Source: an uncultured Methanoregulaceae archaeon
GTDB lineage: Archaea > Halobacteriota > Methanomicrobia > Methanomicrobiales > Methanospirillaceae
Direction of reading: 5' to 3'
NCBI GenBank assembly: GCA_963737635.1
Contig: CAVTTL010000001.1
Span: forward strand, 1,216,001-1,280,000
DNA length: 64,000 nt
Numbering within the stretch: the first letter of the stretch is position 1; every line of letters starts with the position of its first letter. The position numbers were made by a program, and so were the translations under genes. The notes under the pieces were generated by a model. That model ran no database searches. It was not told where the DNA came from and saw only the letters and a list, made by a program, of their open reading frames with translations. Below are positions 9,941-43,991 of the stretch, piece after piece.

Positions 9941-10013
9941 GCCGCCATAACTCAGTTGGTAGAGTGGCTGGCTGTTAACCAGCATGTCACAGGTTCGAGT
10001 CCTGTTGGCGGCG
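9941..10013 (+). tRNA. tRNA-Asn(GTT)
   Basis: Acceptor GCCGCCA/TGGCGGC; anticodon arm CTGG CT GTT AA CCAG; GGTTCGAGTCC T-arm. Confidence 0.96.
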
Positions 10014-10018
10014 CTTAT

Positions 10019-10094
10019 GGGCCTGTAGCTCAGTTCCGGTTAGAGCGCCCGGCTCATAACCGGGCGGTCATGCGTTCGAATCGCATCAGGCCCA
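10019..10094 (+). tRNA. tRNA with CAT anticodon, probably tRNA-Ile2 (agmatidine type)
   Basis: GGGCCTG/CAGGCCC acceptor; CCCGG CT CAT AA CCGGG; body closely resembles the tRNA-Ile(GAT) at 18399-18472. Confidence 0.92.
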
Positions 10095-11251: not shown

Positions 11252-11346
11252 ACCGCGTTCTGGGAGGCACCGTATTTGAGTTATATCCGAGGGAGATCCG
11301 GGTCTGAATATAACAAGGATTTATTGACCGGCAGACAAAGTTATAT

Positions 11347-11653
11347 GGGGACTAGCCCGGGTGGCTCGGCGTCACTTGTAACCCGAAACCGTCGGTACGC
11401 GGGGGGCGAAGTTTGACGAAGGCTGCAACGATCTGCTGGAGCCTGTGTATTCTGACGTTGAAACCTCGTCCCATGAGGTCGATGGCCGGGAATCAAAATT
11501 CCGGAGGGAATGGCGACCTGTTGCTGCGGGTACCGGTTCAGGCCCGGAAGGGAGCAGACTTACCGCAGACATCCGGCGCCCATGGGGTAACGGGGCGGAG
11601 GATGGGTACTTTGGTAAAAGCAGTAACGTACAGTCGACTGATAACACGTCCCC
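11347..11653 (+). ncRNA. ffs: Archaeal SRP (7S) RNA
   Basis: Terminal pairing GGGGAC/GTCCCC; Alu-domain TGTAACCCG; helix 6 ATTCC-GGAG-GGAAT; helix 8 CAGGCCCGGAAGGGAGCAG; TATA-like TTTATT about 25 nt upstream. Confidence 0.93.
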
Positions 11654-11668
11654 ACTTCTTGTGATACC

Positions 11669-18398: not shown

Positions 18399-18472
18399 TG
18401 GGCCCGATGCGATTCGAACGCATGACCTCCCGGTTATCAGCCGGGCGCACCACCGGGCTATGCTACGGGCCC
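18399..18472 (-). tRNA. tRNA-Ile(GAT)
   Basis: GGGCCCG/CGGGCCC acceptor; CCCGG CT GAT AA CCGGG; GTTCGAATC. Confidence 0.96.
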
Positions 18473-21748: not shown

Positions 21749-21832
21749 CGCTGAGGGGGGGAATTGAACCCCCGAGGCACTTTCGCACCACAGGCTTTCC
21801 AGGCCTGCGCCCTACCGCTAGACTACCTCAGC
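21749..21832 (-). tRNA. tRNA-Ser(GGA)
   Basis: GCTGAGG/CCTCAGC acceptor; CAGGC CT GGA AA GCCTG; long variable arm. Confidence 0.95.
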
Positions 21833-26032: not shown

Positions 26033-26105
<73 letters not shown>

Positions 26106-33754: not shown

Positions 33755-33826
33755 CGGACCCAGCGGGAATCGAACCCGCGTCCTTGGGTTCGAAGCCCAA
33801 GAGGATGTCCTCTACCCCATGGATCC
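33755..33826 (-). tRNA. tRNA-Arg(TCG)
   Basis: GGATCCA/TGGGTCC acceptor; TTGGG CT TCG AA CCCAA. Confidence 0.95.
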
Positions 33827-38916: not shown

Positions 38917-39118
38917 GCAGATCGCGATTCTGCCGCAAAATACCCGCCGAAACAAGCCCCAAATGGGGCCTGTTGGCAGATAGTAAATCTTTTTTTTCCC
39001 CTTTTCCTTTCGATGGTGTTCCCTGTCAGACCGGTTGTTTTATAGTATCTCGTCCCGATAGAACGTGGCGTGCAAATGTCTATGTGGTCCCCGGAAGCAC
39101 TCTATTCAGGAGAGGGAC

Positions 39119-40045
39119 ATGTTTACCGTAACTGACGTTGCCACCGGACAGGGAACATTACAGTACCGTGAAGAAAACCTGACCGGGCTAAGATGTAGGA
39201 TCAGTCCCGAAAGGCTCAAGCGACGCATCGATCAGCCTCTTTCCCTTTCCGGAGAATCTGCCGGCTGTCCGTTCTGCCCGGAAAATGTCTTTTCCGTTAC
39301 CCCGACCTTTCCGGATGGATCCCGCATTGTACGTGGGGAAAGTGTGACGTTTCCCAACATGTTCCCGTTTGCTGCATGGCACACAGTGACGGTGATCACG
39401 AGAGATCATATAGTGTCTTCCTTTACCCGGCAGCAAATTGCTGATGCTCTCCATGCACAGACCGAATCACTCCTTCGGTATAACGGGTATCCCAGCATCA
39501 ACTGGAATTACCTGCCTTCCGCAGGGGCAAGTATTATCCATCCCCATATGCAGGGAGTTGCCGATCCGCGGCCCTCATGGTTGGCGGAGCGGTACCTCGC
39601 AGCCAGTAAAGAGTTTTCTGGAGGGACCAAAAGACGGTACTGGGATGCCGTGCGGGAGCAGGAAAGGTCATCGGACCGGTATCTCTTTGGTGATGAGATT
39701 CTCTGGTCTGCCCACGCGGTACCACTCGGCGAACGCGAGGTGCGAGGGATCCTGCCGGTCAGCCGGCTGGATGAGCTGGAAAACTATATTGAACCTCTTG
39801 CAGAAGGAATTCTTGAAATACTTGCACTCTACCAGAAACTGGGAACATATGCATTCAATATGGCCATCTTCTTTAGCAGGGAAAAAACAGACGATTTCTC
39901 TGCATTCTGCTCTCTGATCTCCCGGATCAACCCAAACCCCCTGTCAACGAGCGATTCGGCATTCATGGAACGTCTCCATAACGAACCTGTGATCCTGACC
40001 CTGCCCGAAGATCTCGGGCGGTACTACCGGAATGAAGGCCGGTGA
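39119..40045 (+). CDS. GalT-like (HIT superfamily) nucleotidyltransferase
   Basis: CPFCP, FPNMFP, NYLPSAGASIIHPHMQ. Confidence 0.85.
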   Translation: MFTVTDVATGQGTLQYREENLTGLRCRISPERLKRRIDQPLSLSGESAGCPFCPENVFSVTPTFPDGSRIVRGESVTFPNMFPFAAWHTVTVITRDHIVSSFTRQQIADALHAQTESLLRYNGYPSINWNYLPSAGASIIHPHMQGVADPRPSWLAERYLAASKEFSGGTKRRYWDAVREQERSSDRYLFGDEILWSAHAVPLGEREVRGILPVSRLDELENYIEPLAEGILEILALYQKLGTYAFNMAIFFSREKTDDFSAFCSLISRINPNPLSTSDSAFMERLHNEPVILTLPEDLGRYYRNEGR

Positions 40046-40099: not shown

Positions 40100-40942
40100 T
40101 TACTCGAATTTTGCAACGAGTTTGGTCTTGCGGACGAGCGTGCCATCCTTCTTGTGGGGCTGGCGCAGGATGCTGTCGCCTGCTTTCTCAAGCTCGCGGG
40201 CCTCGTCGCAGAGGACTGCTGCGGTTCTCATCATTTCGTGAGCGCTTGCAACGATTGGGATGTATTTCTCCCATTCCTTGGTCATGAAGCAGCCCTTGAC
40301 GTTCTGGCCTGCAACAGCAATGGCAATCTCGTGGGCAGCGCGTGCCTTTGCCAGCGCGAAGGGGTTGGTGAACTCGCCGTCGACCGCCTTATCGGTGGTC
40401 ATGATGATCTTCGGGAGCTCGATTTCAGTGCCCTTTTTGCCGGCTTTGACTTGGTCGATGACCTTGTCGAGAGCGATTTGGAGTTTGCGGAATGCACCGG
40501 TGATTGCCAGAACTTTGACGAGATTACCGTTGTAGTCGGCCATCTCGATGGGGTCGAGGAATTCGCGGCGTGCACCGATCATGGAGTCGGCCTTCATGAT
40601 GATATAGCCGAACTTGGTGTCAGCCTTGACGCCTTCCCATTCCTTCTTCGTGGTTACATCATCAGTGATGATGACCGTCGGGATACCTGCTGCAGCGAGC
40701 TGTTCGCGGGCGCCGGTCGGGCCGGGGAGAACACCGTTGGGGGAGACTACAATACAGAAGTCCGGTTTGTATGCCTTCAGGTTGGAAACGACACGGTCAA
40801 CATCTGCCGGCTCGAGTTTTGTACCACTGGTCGCCATGAATGTCTGCATGTCTTCACGGTCTGCTCTCTCGTCAAGAAGCAGCTCTGCCATTACACCACT
40901 TGCAATATTGCCTAACTTGGCAACTCCTACTTTAACAACCAT
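40100..40942 (-). CDS. mtd: F420-dependent methylene-H4MPT dehydrogenase
   Basis: [39 protein letters not shown]. Confidence 0.97.
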
Positions 40943-41171: not shown

Positions 41172-41585
41172 ATGGATAGTATGAAAGATGGTCTTCTCAC
41201 CGACAGGCAGATGGAGGTACTTCGGTACCGGAAACAGGGAATGACCCAGCAGCAGATCGCAGACATCATCAGCACGTCCAAGGCGAATGTCTGTACGATT
41301 GAAAAATCTGCGATGGAAAATATCCGGCGGGCAAAAGAGACGCTTGAATTTTTGTATACCCTTGATGCTACACATCTTTGCACCATTCCTTCAGGAACAG
41401 ACCTGTTCGAAGTGCCGGGTATGATCTTTGCCGAAGCTGAAAAAGCCAAGATCAAGGTAAAATATGATACGATATCCCTTATTAACCGGCTCCGGGAAGC
41501 GCGACCCCAAGCGTACAAGGCCCGGTGCATCTGTGAAGATGTGCAGATCTATATCACAGATGAAGGGGAGATCTATTTCGGATAA
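41172..41585 (+). CDS. tfx: Tfx-family DNA-binding protein
   Basis: LTDRQMEVLRYRKQGMTQQQIADIISTSKANVCTIEKSAMENIRRAKETL. Confidence 0.88.
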   Translation: MDSMKDGLLTDRQMEVLRYRKQGMTQQQIADIISTSKANVCTIEKSAMENIRRAKETLEFLYTLDATHLCTIPSGTDLFEVPGMIFAEAEKAKIKVKYDTISLINRLREARPQAYKARCICEDVQIYITDEGEIYFG

Positions 41586-41661
41586 ATGCGCTATGCCGTT
41601 CGTTATTCCTGAACGACCCGGATGTTAAGGGACCGTAAGGAATACCGTGCCACGGAACACT

Positions 41662-41679
41662 GGCATAAATATATATGCC
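41662..41679 (+). promoter_or_regulatory. TATA-box candidate for the r-protein operon, embedded in inverted repeat GGCATA-N6-TATGCC
   Basis: TAAATATATA is the strongest TATA-like element between tfx and rpl3. Confidence 0.55.
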
Positions 41680-41699
41680 CTTTTAATCAATAGTTACGG

Positions 41700-42205
41700 A
41701 AGCCGATATGGGAGTATCCCTGCCGTACCTGTCTGTGAGACACATATGGCACCGGCGGAAATCATGCCCGAGACGACACCGGGAATGGTTTTGCCGTGGG
41801 TATTTCCCGATTGGTGACCTCCTCGTCTACGAGGAGGGTCCCGAGAAGGAGTTGTGATCCGTCACAACGGGCTGACAGAGTTGGATCTGACCGTGACGTA
41901 CAGGTGGACGTTTCCGTAACGGCCTGTTCCCCTGACTGATATCAGGGGATGCGTCAATGTCAGGGTCTTCTTTCGCGAGAAAAACACCGGGAACTAACTG
42001 GAGTGCAGAATATCTTCATTCCCGCTCTCCGGGTTCCTGGCCGACCGGTTCACAGGCAAGGCATACCACCGCGATATGCGGATGGCATATGCGTCGTGCC
42101 GGTGACACCGGATCGCGTGTTGGCTTACCGGACAGGCAAGTGATAACACTTCAGTCTCGGATTCATCTCTCTAGTTCGTGTCAAGTATAACCCAAAACAC
42201 GAATG
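41700..42205 (+). ncRNA. Candidate large structured RNA / 5' leader of the rpl3 operon
   Basis: No credible ORF; roughly ten helices found by eye plus end-to-end pairing 41728-41743 with 42117-42136. Confidence 0.6.
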
Positions 42206-42223
42206 CAAAGGAATGATTGACAC

Positions 42224-43237
42224 ATGCCAAAAATAAACAGACCACGCCGAGGCTCACTGGCGTTCAGCCCACGAAAACGTGCACAGAGCCCCATACCCAA
42301 ATACAAGTCTTGGCCACAGCGCACCGGCGCACCCGCGCTGCTGGGCTTCGCCGGCTACAAAGTGGGGATGACGCATGTCCTTATGGTCGATGACCACAAG
42401 GACAGCCCGACAGAGGGCAAAGAGATCATGGTACCGGTTACGATCATTGAAATCCCAACCATGAAAGTTGCTGCCATACGGGCATATTCGCAGGATACCT
42501 ACGGCCGACACGCATTGACTGAGATCTGGGCAGAGCCGTTGGATGAACAGCTTTCCCGCCGTGTAACCATGCCTAAGAATTACGACAGTACAGCTGCGAA
42601 GAAGAAATGTGCAGATGCGCTGGCAGCAGGGCTGGTGGCCGAGATCTACGCGCTTGCATACACCCAACCGGCAACTATGAGCGGTGTACCAAAGAAGGTG
42701 CCCGATCTCATGGAGATCAAGATATCTGGTGGGGATGTTGCAAAGCAGTACGAGTATGCTCTTGGGCTGCTCGGAAACGAAGCCCGGCTCAACAATGTGA
42801 TAGAGATCGGCGCGTATGCTGATATCACGGCCATCACTATAGGTAAGGGCACACAGGGTCCGGTCAAGCGCTGGGGAGTCATGCTCCGCAAGAGAAAGCA
42901 CTCGGTTGGCGGAAAAGAGCGTCATGTCGGTACTCTTGGACCCTGGAATCCCCACCACGTCCGCTGGGAAGTTCCCCAGAGCGGCCAGATGGGTTACCAG
43001 CAGCGCACCGAGTTCAACAAGCGCATTTTAAAGATCGGTGAAAACGGTGCGGAGATCACGCCGGCAGGAGGCTTCCTTAACTACGGCGTTGTCAGGAACG
43101 CGTATGTCGTTATCAAGGGGTCCATCCCCGGTCCGGCAAAGCGTCTTATCCGTATACGCCCGGCAATTCGTCAGGGAGAACATGTTATTCGCGCGCCCGC
43201 GATCCAGTTTGTGAGCGTCCAGAGCAAACAGGGGTGA
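42224..43237 (+). CDS. rpl3: 50S ribosomal protein uL3
   Basis: [32 protein letters not shown]. Confidence 0.98.
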
Positions 43238-43244
43238 TCAAGAG

Positions 43245-43991
43245 ATGAAAGCACAGGTTAAGACAATCGAAGGCGGCGTGGCAAAGGATATCGAACTCCC
43301 GGCCATGTTTTCCGAGGAATACCGCCCGGACCTGATCAAGAAGGCAGTGATGGCACTCCAGAGCACCCGGCGCCAGCCGCATGGTTCGTACCCGTTTGCC
43401 GGTATCTGTTCCTCCGCGGTCGGGTGGGGAAGTGGCAGGGGTGCATCGCATGTCCCCCGTCTCAAGAATGGTTCCCGTGCAGCTAAAGTCCCGCAGGCAA
43501 AAGGCGGGCGAGAAGCACATCCGCCGGTTACCGCAAAGGTGCTGATAAAAGAGATCAACACAAAAGAAAAACAGAAAGCATTCCGATCTGCTGTTGCAGC
43601 AAGCATCCGTGCTGATCTCATAAGCAGCCGGGGACATACGTTTGAAGGAAATGTTCCCCTGATCTTTGAGGACAAGTTCGAGACCCTCGGACGAACGCAG
43701 GATGTCATCTCCGCACTGACGAACCTCGGCGTATACAGCGATGTCGAGCGTGCAAAAGACAGCCGCAAGGTTCGAGCAGGCAGGGGCAAGCTTCGTGGTC
43801 GCAGGTACAGGCAGAGGAAGAGTCTGCTTATTGTTACCTCTGGCCCCGAGTTCCGCGCTGCCCGCAATCTTGCTGGAGTGGATGTTGTGACTGTCGACCA
43901 GCTCAATGTCGAGCACCTCGCTCCGGGCACGCAGGCAGGTCGCCTGACTGTCTGGACCGAAAGTGCCGTCACACGACTGGAGGGAAGGTAA
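43245..43991 (+). CDS. rpl4: 50S ribosomal protein uL4
   Basis: RPDLIKKAV, WGSGRG, RAGRGKLRGR, LAPG..GRLT. Confidence 0.98.
   Translation: MKAQVKTIEGGVAKDIELPAMFSEEYRPDLIKKAVMALQSTRRQPHGSYPFAGICSSAVGWGSGRGASHVPRLKNGSRAAKVPQAKGGREAHPPVTAKVLIKEINTKEKQKAFRSAVAASIRADLISSRGHTFEGNVPLIFEDKFETLGRTQDVISALTNLGVYSDVERAKDSRKVRAGRGKLRGRRYRQRKSLLIVTSGPEFRAARNLAGVDVVTVDQLNVEHLAPGTQAGRLTVWTESAVTRLEGR

Follow-up and report, generated by a model that had tools for sequence, protein, structure and literature searches.

What lies between tfx and rpl3, at the head of the L3-L4 ribosomal protein operon of an uncultured Methanoregulaceae archaeon? In the window (the whole stretch of 64,000 nucleotides that was analysed), the tfx-rpl3 gap occupies positions 41586-42223. 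It is 638 nt long and its longest ORF encodes 77 aa, in agreement with an earlier sequence-only reading, which had described a gap of approximately 640 bp devoid of a credible ORF. The large structured non-coding RNA that this reading placed ahead of the operon is upheld; it is conserved and is most plausibly a co-transcribed leader. The order of tfx, long gap and rpl3 was preserved in all 130 loci having both genes. The gap is very probably a transcribed non-coding 5′ leader (approximately 528 nt) of the rpl3-rpl4 operon and the remnant of a decayed PF02598/COG2106 SPOUT methyltransferase gene. To the whole explanation, in which this gene-derived leader also serves feedback by a ribosomal protein, we assign a probability of roughly 0.55.

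Locus and architecture of the predicted leader

The genes and expression signals of the locus are as follows.

41172-41585, + strand: tfx, the upstream neighbour (Pfam TFX_C, E 1.8e-34)
41662-41677, + strand: putative archaeal promoter (BRE/TATA), GGCATAAATATATATG; columns invariant in 20 of 20 genus sequences
41696-42223, + strand: predicted 5′ leader in full, supported by fold z-score, consensus structure and identity to relatives
42208-42213, + strand: Shine-Dalgarno-like AAGGAA of rpl3; AGG invariant in 20 of 20 sequences, unpaired in the consensus structure
42224-43237, + strand: rpl3 (uL3), first gene of the operon (Pfam Ribosomal_L3, E 1.3e-86)
43245-43991, + strand: rpl4 (uL4), second gene, its product being the ligand presumed by analogy (Pfam Ribosomal_L4, E 5.9e-39)

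The putative promoter coincides with a TATA-like element already noticed at approximately 41667, and it was alignable with the promoter of an intact PF02598 gene in a related genus. In the genus alignment, the conserved TATA box lies approximately 30 nt ahead of a conserved 5′ block, and the leader start (approximately 41696-41698) was placed by this spacing. The window's leader, from its predicted start up to rpl3, contains no run of five or more T. Across the genus, 13 of 78 leaders had such a run in region D, and none (0/78) had one in the last two segments; the last 100 nt likewise contained none (0/78), by a criterion that weaker archaeal terminators can escape. The genus alignment also showed no further conserved promoter that could serve rpl3. 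Because a conserved promoter is present and the window's leader lacks a T>=5 run, a leader probably co-transcribed with rpl3 from the TATA box is the most plausible arrangement.

The segment 41690-42223 had an MFE of −220.4 kcal/mol (z −5.63), and none of 100 shuffles folded equally well. The opposite (minus) strand also folded well (z −4.87), so the strand is not assignable from stability alone. The plus strand was assigned based on the promoter, the plus-strand Rfam match described below and the G-U pairs, which were the commonest form at 11 of the 89 consensus pairs and had earlier been taken as a sign of RNA-level structure. The consensus structure of the whole leader (89 pairs) was 97.0% paired compared with 92.2% in shuffles, and 19 pairs showed two-sided change. 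The leader displays base-pair covariation, with two-sided changes above shuffles both for the junction and for the consensus structure; most of the local helices drawn by eye in the sequence-only reading have been borne out, many of them through compensatory change. Moreover, identity to relatives was 0.78-0.81 in the leader and 0.52-0.57 at the 4-fold sites of rpl3, and the leader is far better conserved than neutral sites. Conservation covers the whole leader, the junction and beyond, and the leader was kept in at least five families of Methanomicrobiales with invariant blocks of 10-50 nt.

The structural elements of the leader, from 5′ to 3′, are the following.

41698-41820, + strand: 5′ domain, a three-way junction; same architecture in nine of nine independently folded genus sequences
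41816-41840, + strand: hairpin B; forms in each of 70 distinct genus sequences, on stems of many different sequences
41841-41845, + strand: 5′ strand of a predicted long-range helix, CCGAG, partner 42156-42160; RNAalifold consensus, invariant
41851-41868, + strand: hairpin C, GUUGUGA/UCACAAC; invariant, 100% paired in 102 sequences
41871-41876, + strand: 5′ strand of a predicted long-range helix, GCUGAC, partner 42119-42124; RNAalifold consensus
41878-41972, + strand: extended three-way junction; three inner helices closed by the stem 41878-91/41959-72
41974-41977, + strand: 5′ strand of the closing helix of region D, CGCG, partner 42114-42117; closes D in 15 of 15 single-sequence folds
41978-42113, + strand: variable region D, two to three hairpins depending on the clade; 15 of 78 leaders folded, length 114-165 nt across the genus
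42114-42124, + strand: invariant block UCGCGUGUUGGC, 3′ strands of two long-range helices; genus alignment and consensus structure
42156-42167, + strand: invariant block CUCGGAUU(C/A)AUC, 3′ strand of the outer long-range helix; genus alignment and consensus structure
42177-42201, + strand: hairpin CGUGU/ACACG, shortly 5′ of the ribosome-binding site; no variation among 20 sequences

Several helices drawn in the sequence-only reading recur in this structure. The 5′ domain contains the helices 41702-13/41805-15, 41718-20/41798-800, 41722-27/41745-50 and 41753-62/41787-96, with compensatory changes in helices 2, 4 and 5; the helix previously claimed at 41754-41795 corresponds to 41753-62/41787-96 and showed compensatory change at three pairs. 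The helices claimed at 41816-41840 and 41851-41868 were recovered as hairpins B and C, and the one claimed just ahead of the ribosome-binding site as 42177-81/42197-201. The stretch matching hairpin B encodes TSSLEEG in a related genus with an intact gene, and hairpin C is also present within the coding sequence of gene-bearing Methanomicrobiales. MAFFT with RNAalifold returned no structure for the hairpin B segment, where variable stems were misaligned, and per-sequence folds were used instead. The helices claimed at 41987-42040 and 42061-42092 hold for the MFE structure of the window, but region D differs across the genus. The claimed long-range stem 41728-43/42117-36 was not confirmed: it is missing from the MFE structure, and its 5′ arm lies in a local hairpin (helix 4) that covaries independently at 6/6 pairs.

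Regarding the long-range helices, the pairing 41871-41876/42119-42124 showed only one-sided, pairing-preserving changes (GC to GU and UG to UA; 3/20), and the closing helix of region D is invariant within the genus. When the long-range helices were sought by eye in another genus, only this closing helix had a compensated look, and the two-sided change seen there is a hint only. Covariation is uninformative for three long-range helices and two hairpins, which do not vary. A candidate pairing of 42160-67 with the ribosome-binding region (42211-42218) was 91.3% paired and showed no covariation, and variants break its pairs.

RF03135 in the leader and in a methyltransferase gene

The core of the leader (41887-41963, + strand) matched the Rfam family RF03135, a ribosomal protein leader candidate named L4-Archaeoglobi, with 48.4 bits (E 1.3e-8; gathering score 34.5 bits) and over the full model (1-85 of 85). 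The earlier statement that no family matches is therefore wrong. The large leader proposed as undescribed was in part already catalogued, its core being a known candidate family; RF03135 covers only 77 of approximately 528 nt. The multi-way junction claimed at 41883-41968 was confirmed as the three-way junction 41878-41972. Across 102 Methanomicrobiales sequences, it was 97.1% paired versus 92.1% in shuffles (0/500 as high) and contained 200 two-sided-change cells versus 65.9 in shuffles (0/500 as high); slid controls were 43-52% paired. The RF03135 junction, with its conserved loop nucleotides, is retained across classes. It occurs once per genome, always at the rpl3 locus, and here it sits 260 nt from the rpl3 start.

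A sensitive scan of the gap for other Rfam families gave only sub-threshold chance matches (sn2429, mir-663 and HgcC). The idea of a uL3/uL4-binding rRNA mimic found no support: the best match to the organism's own 23S rRNA scored 18.3 bits, below the shuffle median of 20.3, in a comparison made at the sequence level only. Missing rRNA mimicry is common to many accepted leaders. In the available portion of Eckert & Weinberg 2020 (PMC7247131), RF03135 is described for Archaeoglobi only and rated '?', and its ligand uL4 is assigned by analogy only ('Prior', rating '?').

Elsewhere in the phylum, an RF03135-bearing PF02598/COG2106 SPOUT methyltransferase gene is located directly 5′ of rpl3. RF03135 was detected in 82 of the 151 genomes of the phylum sample; 126 of these genomes lie outside Methanomicrobiales, 74 of them carrying RF03135 and 72 of the 74 also PF02598. 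At all 31 loci checked, RF03135 lay within a PF02598-like ORF, and at the named loci having a PF02598 match (seven of nine scanned) it always lay within that match. Two Archaeoglobi MAGs are among these loci, with open frames of 254 and 298 aa spanning RF03135. In Archaeoglobi, haloarchaea and Methanothrix, the host gene's stop codon adjoins or overlaps the start of rpl3, indicating a shared transcript and probably coupled translation.

Among 57 distinct RF03135 sequences, nearly all coding-embedded, pairing was 91.5% versus 82.3% in shuffles, and 21 pairs showed two-sided change versus 14.4 (0/500 shuffles as high), in an alignment that was fitted to the covariance model. In haloarchaea, synonymous codon identity was raised around RF03135 (0.69 versus 0.56, p 1e-6) and in the Methanothrix group the signal was weak (p 0.08), the interval for this test having been picked after the profile had been seen; lowered synonymous change around RF03135 is clear only in haloarchaea. 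A literature search found no report of RF03135 overlapping COG2106 coding sequence, a point on which the supplement of PMC7247131 may bear.

Origin and possible function of the leader

The PF02598 gene has been lost in Methanomicrobiales almost always. In the class sample (151 genomes), PF02598 was found in 3 genomes and RF03135 in 87 (81 above cut-off), and a Pfam model search at E<=10 did not find PF02598 in the genome from which the window comes. A profile built from 78 genus leaders matched the intact gene of a related genus within its coding sequence (E 9e-34) and also matched the promoter and 5′ UTR of that gene (E 1e-5). The leader core is homologous to the part of the gene that encodes the OB insert. 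Translated similarity (E<=1e-3) was present in 48 of 95 ORF-less gaps and involved residues ~80-182 only, and the 3′ third of the leader showed a marginal colinear similarity of 42 to the 3′ part of the gene (shuffle 95th percentile 37.5, maximum 46). Sequence comparison establishes the homology of the leader to the gene, and what the window holds is a relic of a PF02598/COG2106 gene, not a gene. The sequence-only reading had regarded an Rfam match and remnant protein homology as telling against it; both were found, yet the RNA stands, as together they explain its origin and do not abolish it. In a second lineage with a decayed PF02598 gene (genomes G206 and G234), RF03135 scored below the family cut-off, indicating that its retention after gene loss is not universal. 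No report of a COG2106 gene relic in Methanomicrobiales was found in the literature, and here too the supplement of PMC7247131 may be relevant.

In the ancestral state, the RNA three-way junction (RF03135) would have resided within coding sequence, over the codons of the OB-fold insert, and the methyltransferase gene would have stood first in the operon, as in other classes of the phylum. When the protein was lost in Methanomicrobiales, selection probably held on to the promoter and 5′ UTR as well as the junction with its adjacent hairpins, and the remainder was probably reshaped into the 5′ three-way junction, the variable region and the predicted long-range helices that enclose the core.

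Most likely, the leader acts in cis on the L3-L4 operon, as a control element or for stability. With odds slightly short of even, one of the ribosomal proteins that the operon encodes might bind the junction in cis, surplus protein lowering operon expression; uL4 is proposed as the ligand by analogy only. Surplus ribosomal protein would then stabilise the compact fold and bring operon expression down, the candidate routes being mRNA decay, an effect on transcription or accessibility of the ribosome-binding site of rpl3. Because the junction is 260 nt away from the start of rpl3, direct control of translation is not an obvious mechanism. More tentatively, a regulatory RNA that once acted from within coding sequence could have outlived its host gene, the dead gene having been recruited whole as a multi-domain RNA of ~530 nt that senses ribosomal protein(s) or ribosome-assembly state and exerts control over the operon. 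If true, the conversion of a gene to a riboregulator would be documented here, with natural knock-out evidence for an RNA-level action of RF03135, apart from the once-encoded protein.

A somewhat unlikely alternative is that the leader serves mRNA stability, processing or the balancing of expression, without specific protein feedback. In gene-bearing lineages, a strong structure in the first coding sequence would set the ratio of a low-abundance methyltransferase to the highly expressed ribosomal proteins or mark a processing site, and after gene loss a structured 5′ end would be kept to protect or mature the operon mRNA. The location of RF03135 in a coding sequence that shares its transcript with rpl3, stop abutting or overlapping start, is consistent with such a role, as are the conservation of the entire leader rather than of the junction alone, the absence of rRNA sequence mimicry and the distance of the junction from the rpl3 ribosome-binding site. 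However, a generic stabiliser needs no three-way junction with loop nucleotides conserved across classes, and a processing site is not known. It is improbable that the operon promoter merely serves an independent or processed stable ncRNA acting in trans, for example, in ribosome biogenesis. An RNA of ~500 nt that is multi-domain and strongly conserved, with a compact core enclosed by long-range helices, does come closer to large structured RNAs than to short ribosomal protein leaders, but a conserved terminator signal before rpl3 is absent, a second conserved rpl3 promoter was not seen in the alignment, the homologous sequence is mRNA coding region in gene-bearing relatives, and the single copy per genome is always at the rpl3 locus.

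Compensatory changes well over shuffled and slid controls, conservation far above that of 4-fold sites and retention in five or more families of Methanomicrobiales, where blocks of 10-50 nt stay invariant, make it very improbable that the leader is a neutral, functionless pseudogene remnant whose folding is a by-product of G+C-rich sequence, even though its derivation from a dead gene is real, folding is strong on the minus strand too (z −4.87) and a clearly decaying PF02598 pseudogene is known in another lineage. Slimmer still is the chance that a small protein remains encoded, either as a relic of the OB domain or as an upstream ORF from the AUG at 41708. This AUG is conserved in 74 of 78 leaders, and local translated similarity to the OB insert persists. 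Nevertheless, the OB-similar segments are in different frames with stop codons between them, as read from the sequence and in line with the translated hits being short and separate, the alignment indels are not multiples of three, and the Pfam model gave no match at E<=10. The upstream ORF ranges from 2 to 82 aa with unrelated sequences and was rejected as a conserved peptide.

These results bear on the standing of RF03135, which moves from a doubtful '?' entry to a better-supported RNA element because compensatory changes occur where the overlapping frame is dead and covariation where it is alive. The family description is also corrected: in most lineages examined, the 'leader' lies inside COG2106 methyltransferase coding sequence. 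Moreover, the locus offers a clear case of a coding gene decaying to a dedicated structured leader. To our knowledge, nothing has been experimentally shown about the regulation of the archaeal L3-L4-L23-L2 operon; Haloferax volcanii, which has both RF03135 and PF02598, is a concrete experimental system, in which RF03135 is alterable by synonymous mutations.

Comparison with known systems

The leader of the E. coli S10 operon is autoregulated by L4 via attenuation and translational repression, as experiments have shown. Both it and the present leader are structured RNAs heading a uL3/uL4 operon, the analogy behind the family name. Unlike the present leader, the E. coli leader is bacterial, is much shorter and lies beside the first start codon, and the two are not homologous; its mechanism was demonstrated experimentally, whereas the leader described here is known from sequence alone.

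Archaeal ribosomal protein leader candidates presented in the available portion of PMC7247131 include S15-Halobacteria, S15-Methanomicrobia and eL15-Euryarchaeota. Similar to the present leader, these are cis-acting structured RNAs upstream of ribosomal protein genes and were found by comparative genomics. In contrast to it, as far as that portion of the paper extends, their length is only tens of nucleotides, some are similar to rRNA binding sites, a likeness not found for the present leader at the sequence level, and none is reported as derived from a coding gene.

The available parts of two papers describe the PF02598/COG2106 SPOUT methyltransferase with its OB-fold insert, as in MT1 of Methanothermobacter (PDB 1k3r; PMC1829167), and report PF02598/COG2106 genes in ribosomal protein operons of diverse archaea, A. 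fulgidus included (PMC2584109). The leader shares with this gene its position directly upstream of rpl3, a homologous promoter and 5′ UTR, and a central 170-200 nt homologous to the OB-insert codons. Unlike the gene, the gap has no intact ORF (at most 77 aa versus ~250-320 aa) and no Pfam match, and its frames are broken.

With RF03135 (L4-Archaeoglobi), the leader has in common a full-model match over the gathering score, the same three-way junction and a location on the same strand upstream of rplC-rplD-rplW-rplB (here, uL3 at 42224 and uL4 at 43245, both +). It differs in that the family spans 77 of ~528 nt, Methanoregula flanking it with extra domains, and in distribution, RF03135 being reported for Archaeoglobi only in the available portion of PMC7247131 and occurring here in 82 of the 151 genomes that sample the phylum. 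In gene-bearing lineages, RF03135 lies within coding sequence rather than in an intergenic leader.

The predicted leader of the rpl3-rpl4 operon and its RF03135 core

In the window, the ribosomal-protein genes rpl3 (uL3) and rpl4 (uL4) are preceded by tfx and a gap in which the longest ORF has at most 77 aa. The genes and RNAs in question are as follows (window positions).

9941-10094, 18399-18472, 21749-21832, 26033-26105 and 33755-33826: six tRNA genes (Rfam scan)
11345-11655, + strand: ordinary archaeal SRP RNA (RF01857; Rfam scan, 177 bits)
40100-40942, - strand: mtd (Pfam MTD)
41172-41585, + strand: tfx (Pfam TFX_C)
Between tfx and uL3: gap of 638 nt
42224-43237, + strand: uL3
43245-43991, + strand: uL4

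The closest named relatives were Methanoregula MAGs (tfx protein 99% identical). The order tfx, long gap, rpl3 was found in all 130 loci holding both genes, and these loci provided 97 distinct gaps, mostly of 600-700 nt. Elsewhere in the window, a 326-aa ORF (39065-40045, + strand) without a Pfam match at E<=0.001 adjoins mtd and carries a histidine-rich stretch, HPHMQG, read by eye.

The Rfam scan of the window identified RF03135, the 'L4-Archaeoglobi' ribosomal-protein leader candidate, at 41887-41963 (48.4 bits over the full model, where the gathering score is 34.5); beyond it, no family reached its threshold in the gap. The multi-way junction proposed in the sequence-only reading is real and coincides exactly with this match. 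The extensive folding described there also stood against shuffles, the RNA 41690-42223 having a minimum free energy of -220.4 kcal/mol (z -5.63) that none of 100 shuffles equalled. The complement folded strongly too (z -4.87), so energy alone gives no strand assignment. Three things favour the + strand: conservation of the promoter, the Rfam match, which lies on it, and G-U pairs, the commonest form at 11 of the 89 consensus pairs. We infer that the leader itself is transcribed. A candidate upstream ORF from the conserved AUG at 41708 was rejected: its length varies (2-82 aa) and it lacks conservation.

Covariation and conservation of the leader

The RNAalifold consensus of 20 genus sequences contained 89 pairs in 15 helices. 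Pairing was possible in 97.0% of cells versus 92.2% in shuffles (0/500 as high), and two-sided change occurred in 19 consensus pairs versus 14.0 +/- 1.6 (0/500), while slid controls were 38-44% paired. For the core, the extended three-way junction at 41878-41972, 102 distinct sequences from several Methanomicrobiales genera were 97.1% paired versus 92.1% in shuffles, with two-sided change in 200 cells versus 65.9 (0/500) and slid controls at 43-52%.

The 5' domain (41698-41820) is predicted to form another three-way junction, which was the same in 9/9 independent single-sequence folds and covaries in three helices. Hairpin B (41816-41840) formed in all 70 distinct sequences, with stems of many sequences. 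The structure of region D (41978-42113) varies by clade, and CGCG/CGCG closed it in 15/15 folded leaders chosen from 78; these 78 are what remained of the 97 distinct gaps once 19 missing at least one of seven anchors had been set aside. The hairpins 41851-41868 (hairpin C) and 42177-42201 and the predicted long-range helices 41841-41845/42156-42160, 41871-41876/42119-42124 and 41974-41977/42114-42117 never vary; covariation therefore speaks neither for nor against these five. A different long-range stem, 41728-41743/42117-42136, had been suggested from the sequence; it is absent from the minimum-free-energy structure and clashes with a covarying local hairpin (helix 4, 6/6 pairs). Between 42160-42167 and the ribosome-binding region, 91% of cells were pairable, with no covariation.

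The genus alignment of 20 sequences showed the following invariant blocks, with variable stretches between them.

41662-41677: TATA region
Beginning about 30 nt 3' of the TATA region: 5' block
41841-41892: 50-nt block
Around 41959-41981: invariant block
42113-42124: UCGCGUGUUGGC
42156-42167: CUCGGAUU.AUC
Preceding the ribosome-binding site: hairpin

Leader identity to the window was 0.78-0.81 in the four closest genomes and 0.56-0.59 in distant genus members, compared with 0.52-0.57 and 0.31-0.41 at the four-fold degenerate positions of neighbouring rpl3, indicating purifying selection on the whole leader, the leader values being somewhat inflated by alignment optimisation. In the genus represented by one locus (L026, genome G025), four or five tandem units of 10-12 nt, resembling the conserved UCUUCGCGA block, directly follow the junction (about 355-430 of the 605-nt gap).

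RF03135 within the methyltransferase gene of other lineages

RF03135 was detected in 87 of the 151 class genomes sampled (81 over the cut-off), in 90 of the 151 phylum genomes (82 over it) and in the Haloferax volcanii control. In loci from other classes, the match lies 380-530 nt upstream of rpl3, within an ORF whose end reaches or overlaps the start of rpl3. This ORF is PF02598 (Methyltrn_RNA_3; E 1.3e-48 and 1.3e-56), the SPOUT methyltransferase of COG2106, which carries an OB-fold insert and is described in PMC1829167. The match fell within a PF02598-like coding stretch in 31/31 loci tested. Among nine named loci scanned, it was inside PF02598 in all seven with a match; one ANME-2 and one Alkanophaga locus had none. 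The seven include two Archaeoglobi MAG loci (L246, L249), where frames of 254 and 298 aa stay open across the match and the PF02598 stop codon overlaps the rpl3 ATG (ATGA); in Methanothrix (L183) the junction is TAAATG. This overlap or abutment suggests that the methyltransferase and uL3 are translationally coupled.

Among 126 phylum-sample genomes outside Methanomicrobiales, RF03135 was present in 74, 72 of which also had PF02598; seven had the gene alone and 45 neither. The two with RF03135 alone (G206, G234), from a second lineage with gene decay, had below-cut-off matches of 31-32 bits; immediately 5' of rpl3 in both lies a PF02598 pseudogene in evident decay, with no open frame above 109 aa over the match (L258, G206:C1:1541800-1545300; L259, G234:C80:3000-6500). 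G229, of the same genus as this lineage, kept an intact gene. The element is thus not automatically retained once the gene is lost. In two genomes of one genus (G194:C1:2228222-2228975 and G203:C8:219411-220164), the PF02598 match was split into two parts, one of which contained an internal TGA; this may reflect a frameshifted or split gene or early decay.

A covariance model built from the Methanomicrobiales core gave 59 matches in a search that covered 77 of about 113 gene-bearing or pseudogene loci. The 57 distinct rows were 91.5% paired versus 82.3% in shuffles (0/500), with two-sided change in 21 pairs versus 14.4 +/- 1.7 (0/500) and slid controls at 35-53%, values biased in favour of structure because the alignment was fitted to the model. 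Synonymous codon identity also rose around the element.

Synonymous codon identity (same amino acid) around the element; the test region was chosen once the profile had been viewed
Haloarchaea (23 sequences): in region 0.69, outside 0.56, p 1e-6
Methanothrix group (27 sequences): in region 0.68, outside 0.63, p 0.08
All (107 sequences): in region 0.50, outside 0.42, p 0.005

Gene loss and the probable role of the retained RNA

PF02598 was found in just 3 of the 151 class genomes (two genera), exactly those with longer tfx-rpl3 gaps (1079 and 1602 nt); the 33 genomes sampled from the window's genus all lacked a match, and none was detected in the window's own genome (90% complete) even at E<=10. 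Across Methanomicrobiales, the DNA-binding regulator gene tfx lies directly 5' of the operon promoter whether the PF02598 gene is intact or not. A profile of 78 genus leaders matched one intact gene within its coding sequence (E 9e-34) and also the TATA box and 5' UTR block (E 1e-5). In the intact gene, hairpin B corresponds to codons TSSLEEG and hairpin C to VVLSHN, followed by the junction and a hairpin coding FRCTPE. The sequence-only reading had counted remnant protein homology against its candidate RNA, and such homology is present, though it accounts for the RNA's origin and does not do away with the RNA: translated similarity, solely to residues ~80-182 (the OB insert), remained in 48/95 ORF-less gaps (E<=1e-3). 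The window's own similarity is weak (21 aa, 57% identity, E 4e-4, permissive settings), its pieces lying in different frames with stop codons in between. Among five RF03135-negative genomes of the order, four showed significant leader-profile similarity; the four loci also holding tfx all had gaps of 588-763 nt.

The gap is a non-coding descendant of the operon's first gene. On this reading, the RNA structure already existed within that gene's coding sequence; upon loss of the protein, the structure, promoter and 5' UTR were kept, and the rest of the dead gene was remodelled into additional structured RNA.

Because the element is kept without the methyltransferase, it arguably does not serve that protein, and a role for the downstream ribosomal-protein genes is more likely. 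We favour feedback through an operon-encoded ribosomal protein, with a probability of roughly 0.45. The leader shows no sequence mimicry of 23S rRNA. Next, and rather unlikely, is that the element acts without a protein, on stability, processing or the balance of expression. Against an independent sRNA gene in the gap argues the lack of a terminator-like T-run between the leader and rpl3.

Our literature searches returned no report of RF03135 within COG2106 coding sequence, or of the dead gene persisting in Methanomicrobiales as a conserved, structured leader of ~530 nt. Both the RF03135 family at the core and the place of COG2106 in the operon are already known. In its account of the motif, PMC7247131 gives it for Archaeoglobi, upstream of rplC-rplD-rplW-rplB, suggests uL4 as its ligand on grounds of analogy and rates the motif '?'. 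A passage in PMC2584109 notes that, in Pyrococci, A. fulgidus and H. salinarum, COG2106-family genes occur within operons of ribosomal-protein genes.
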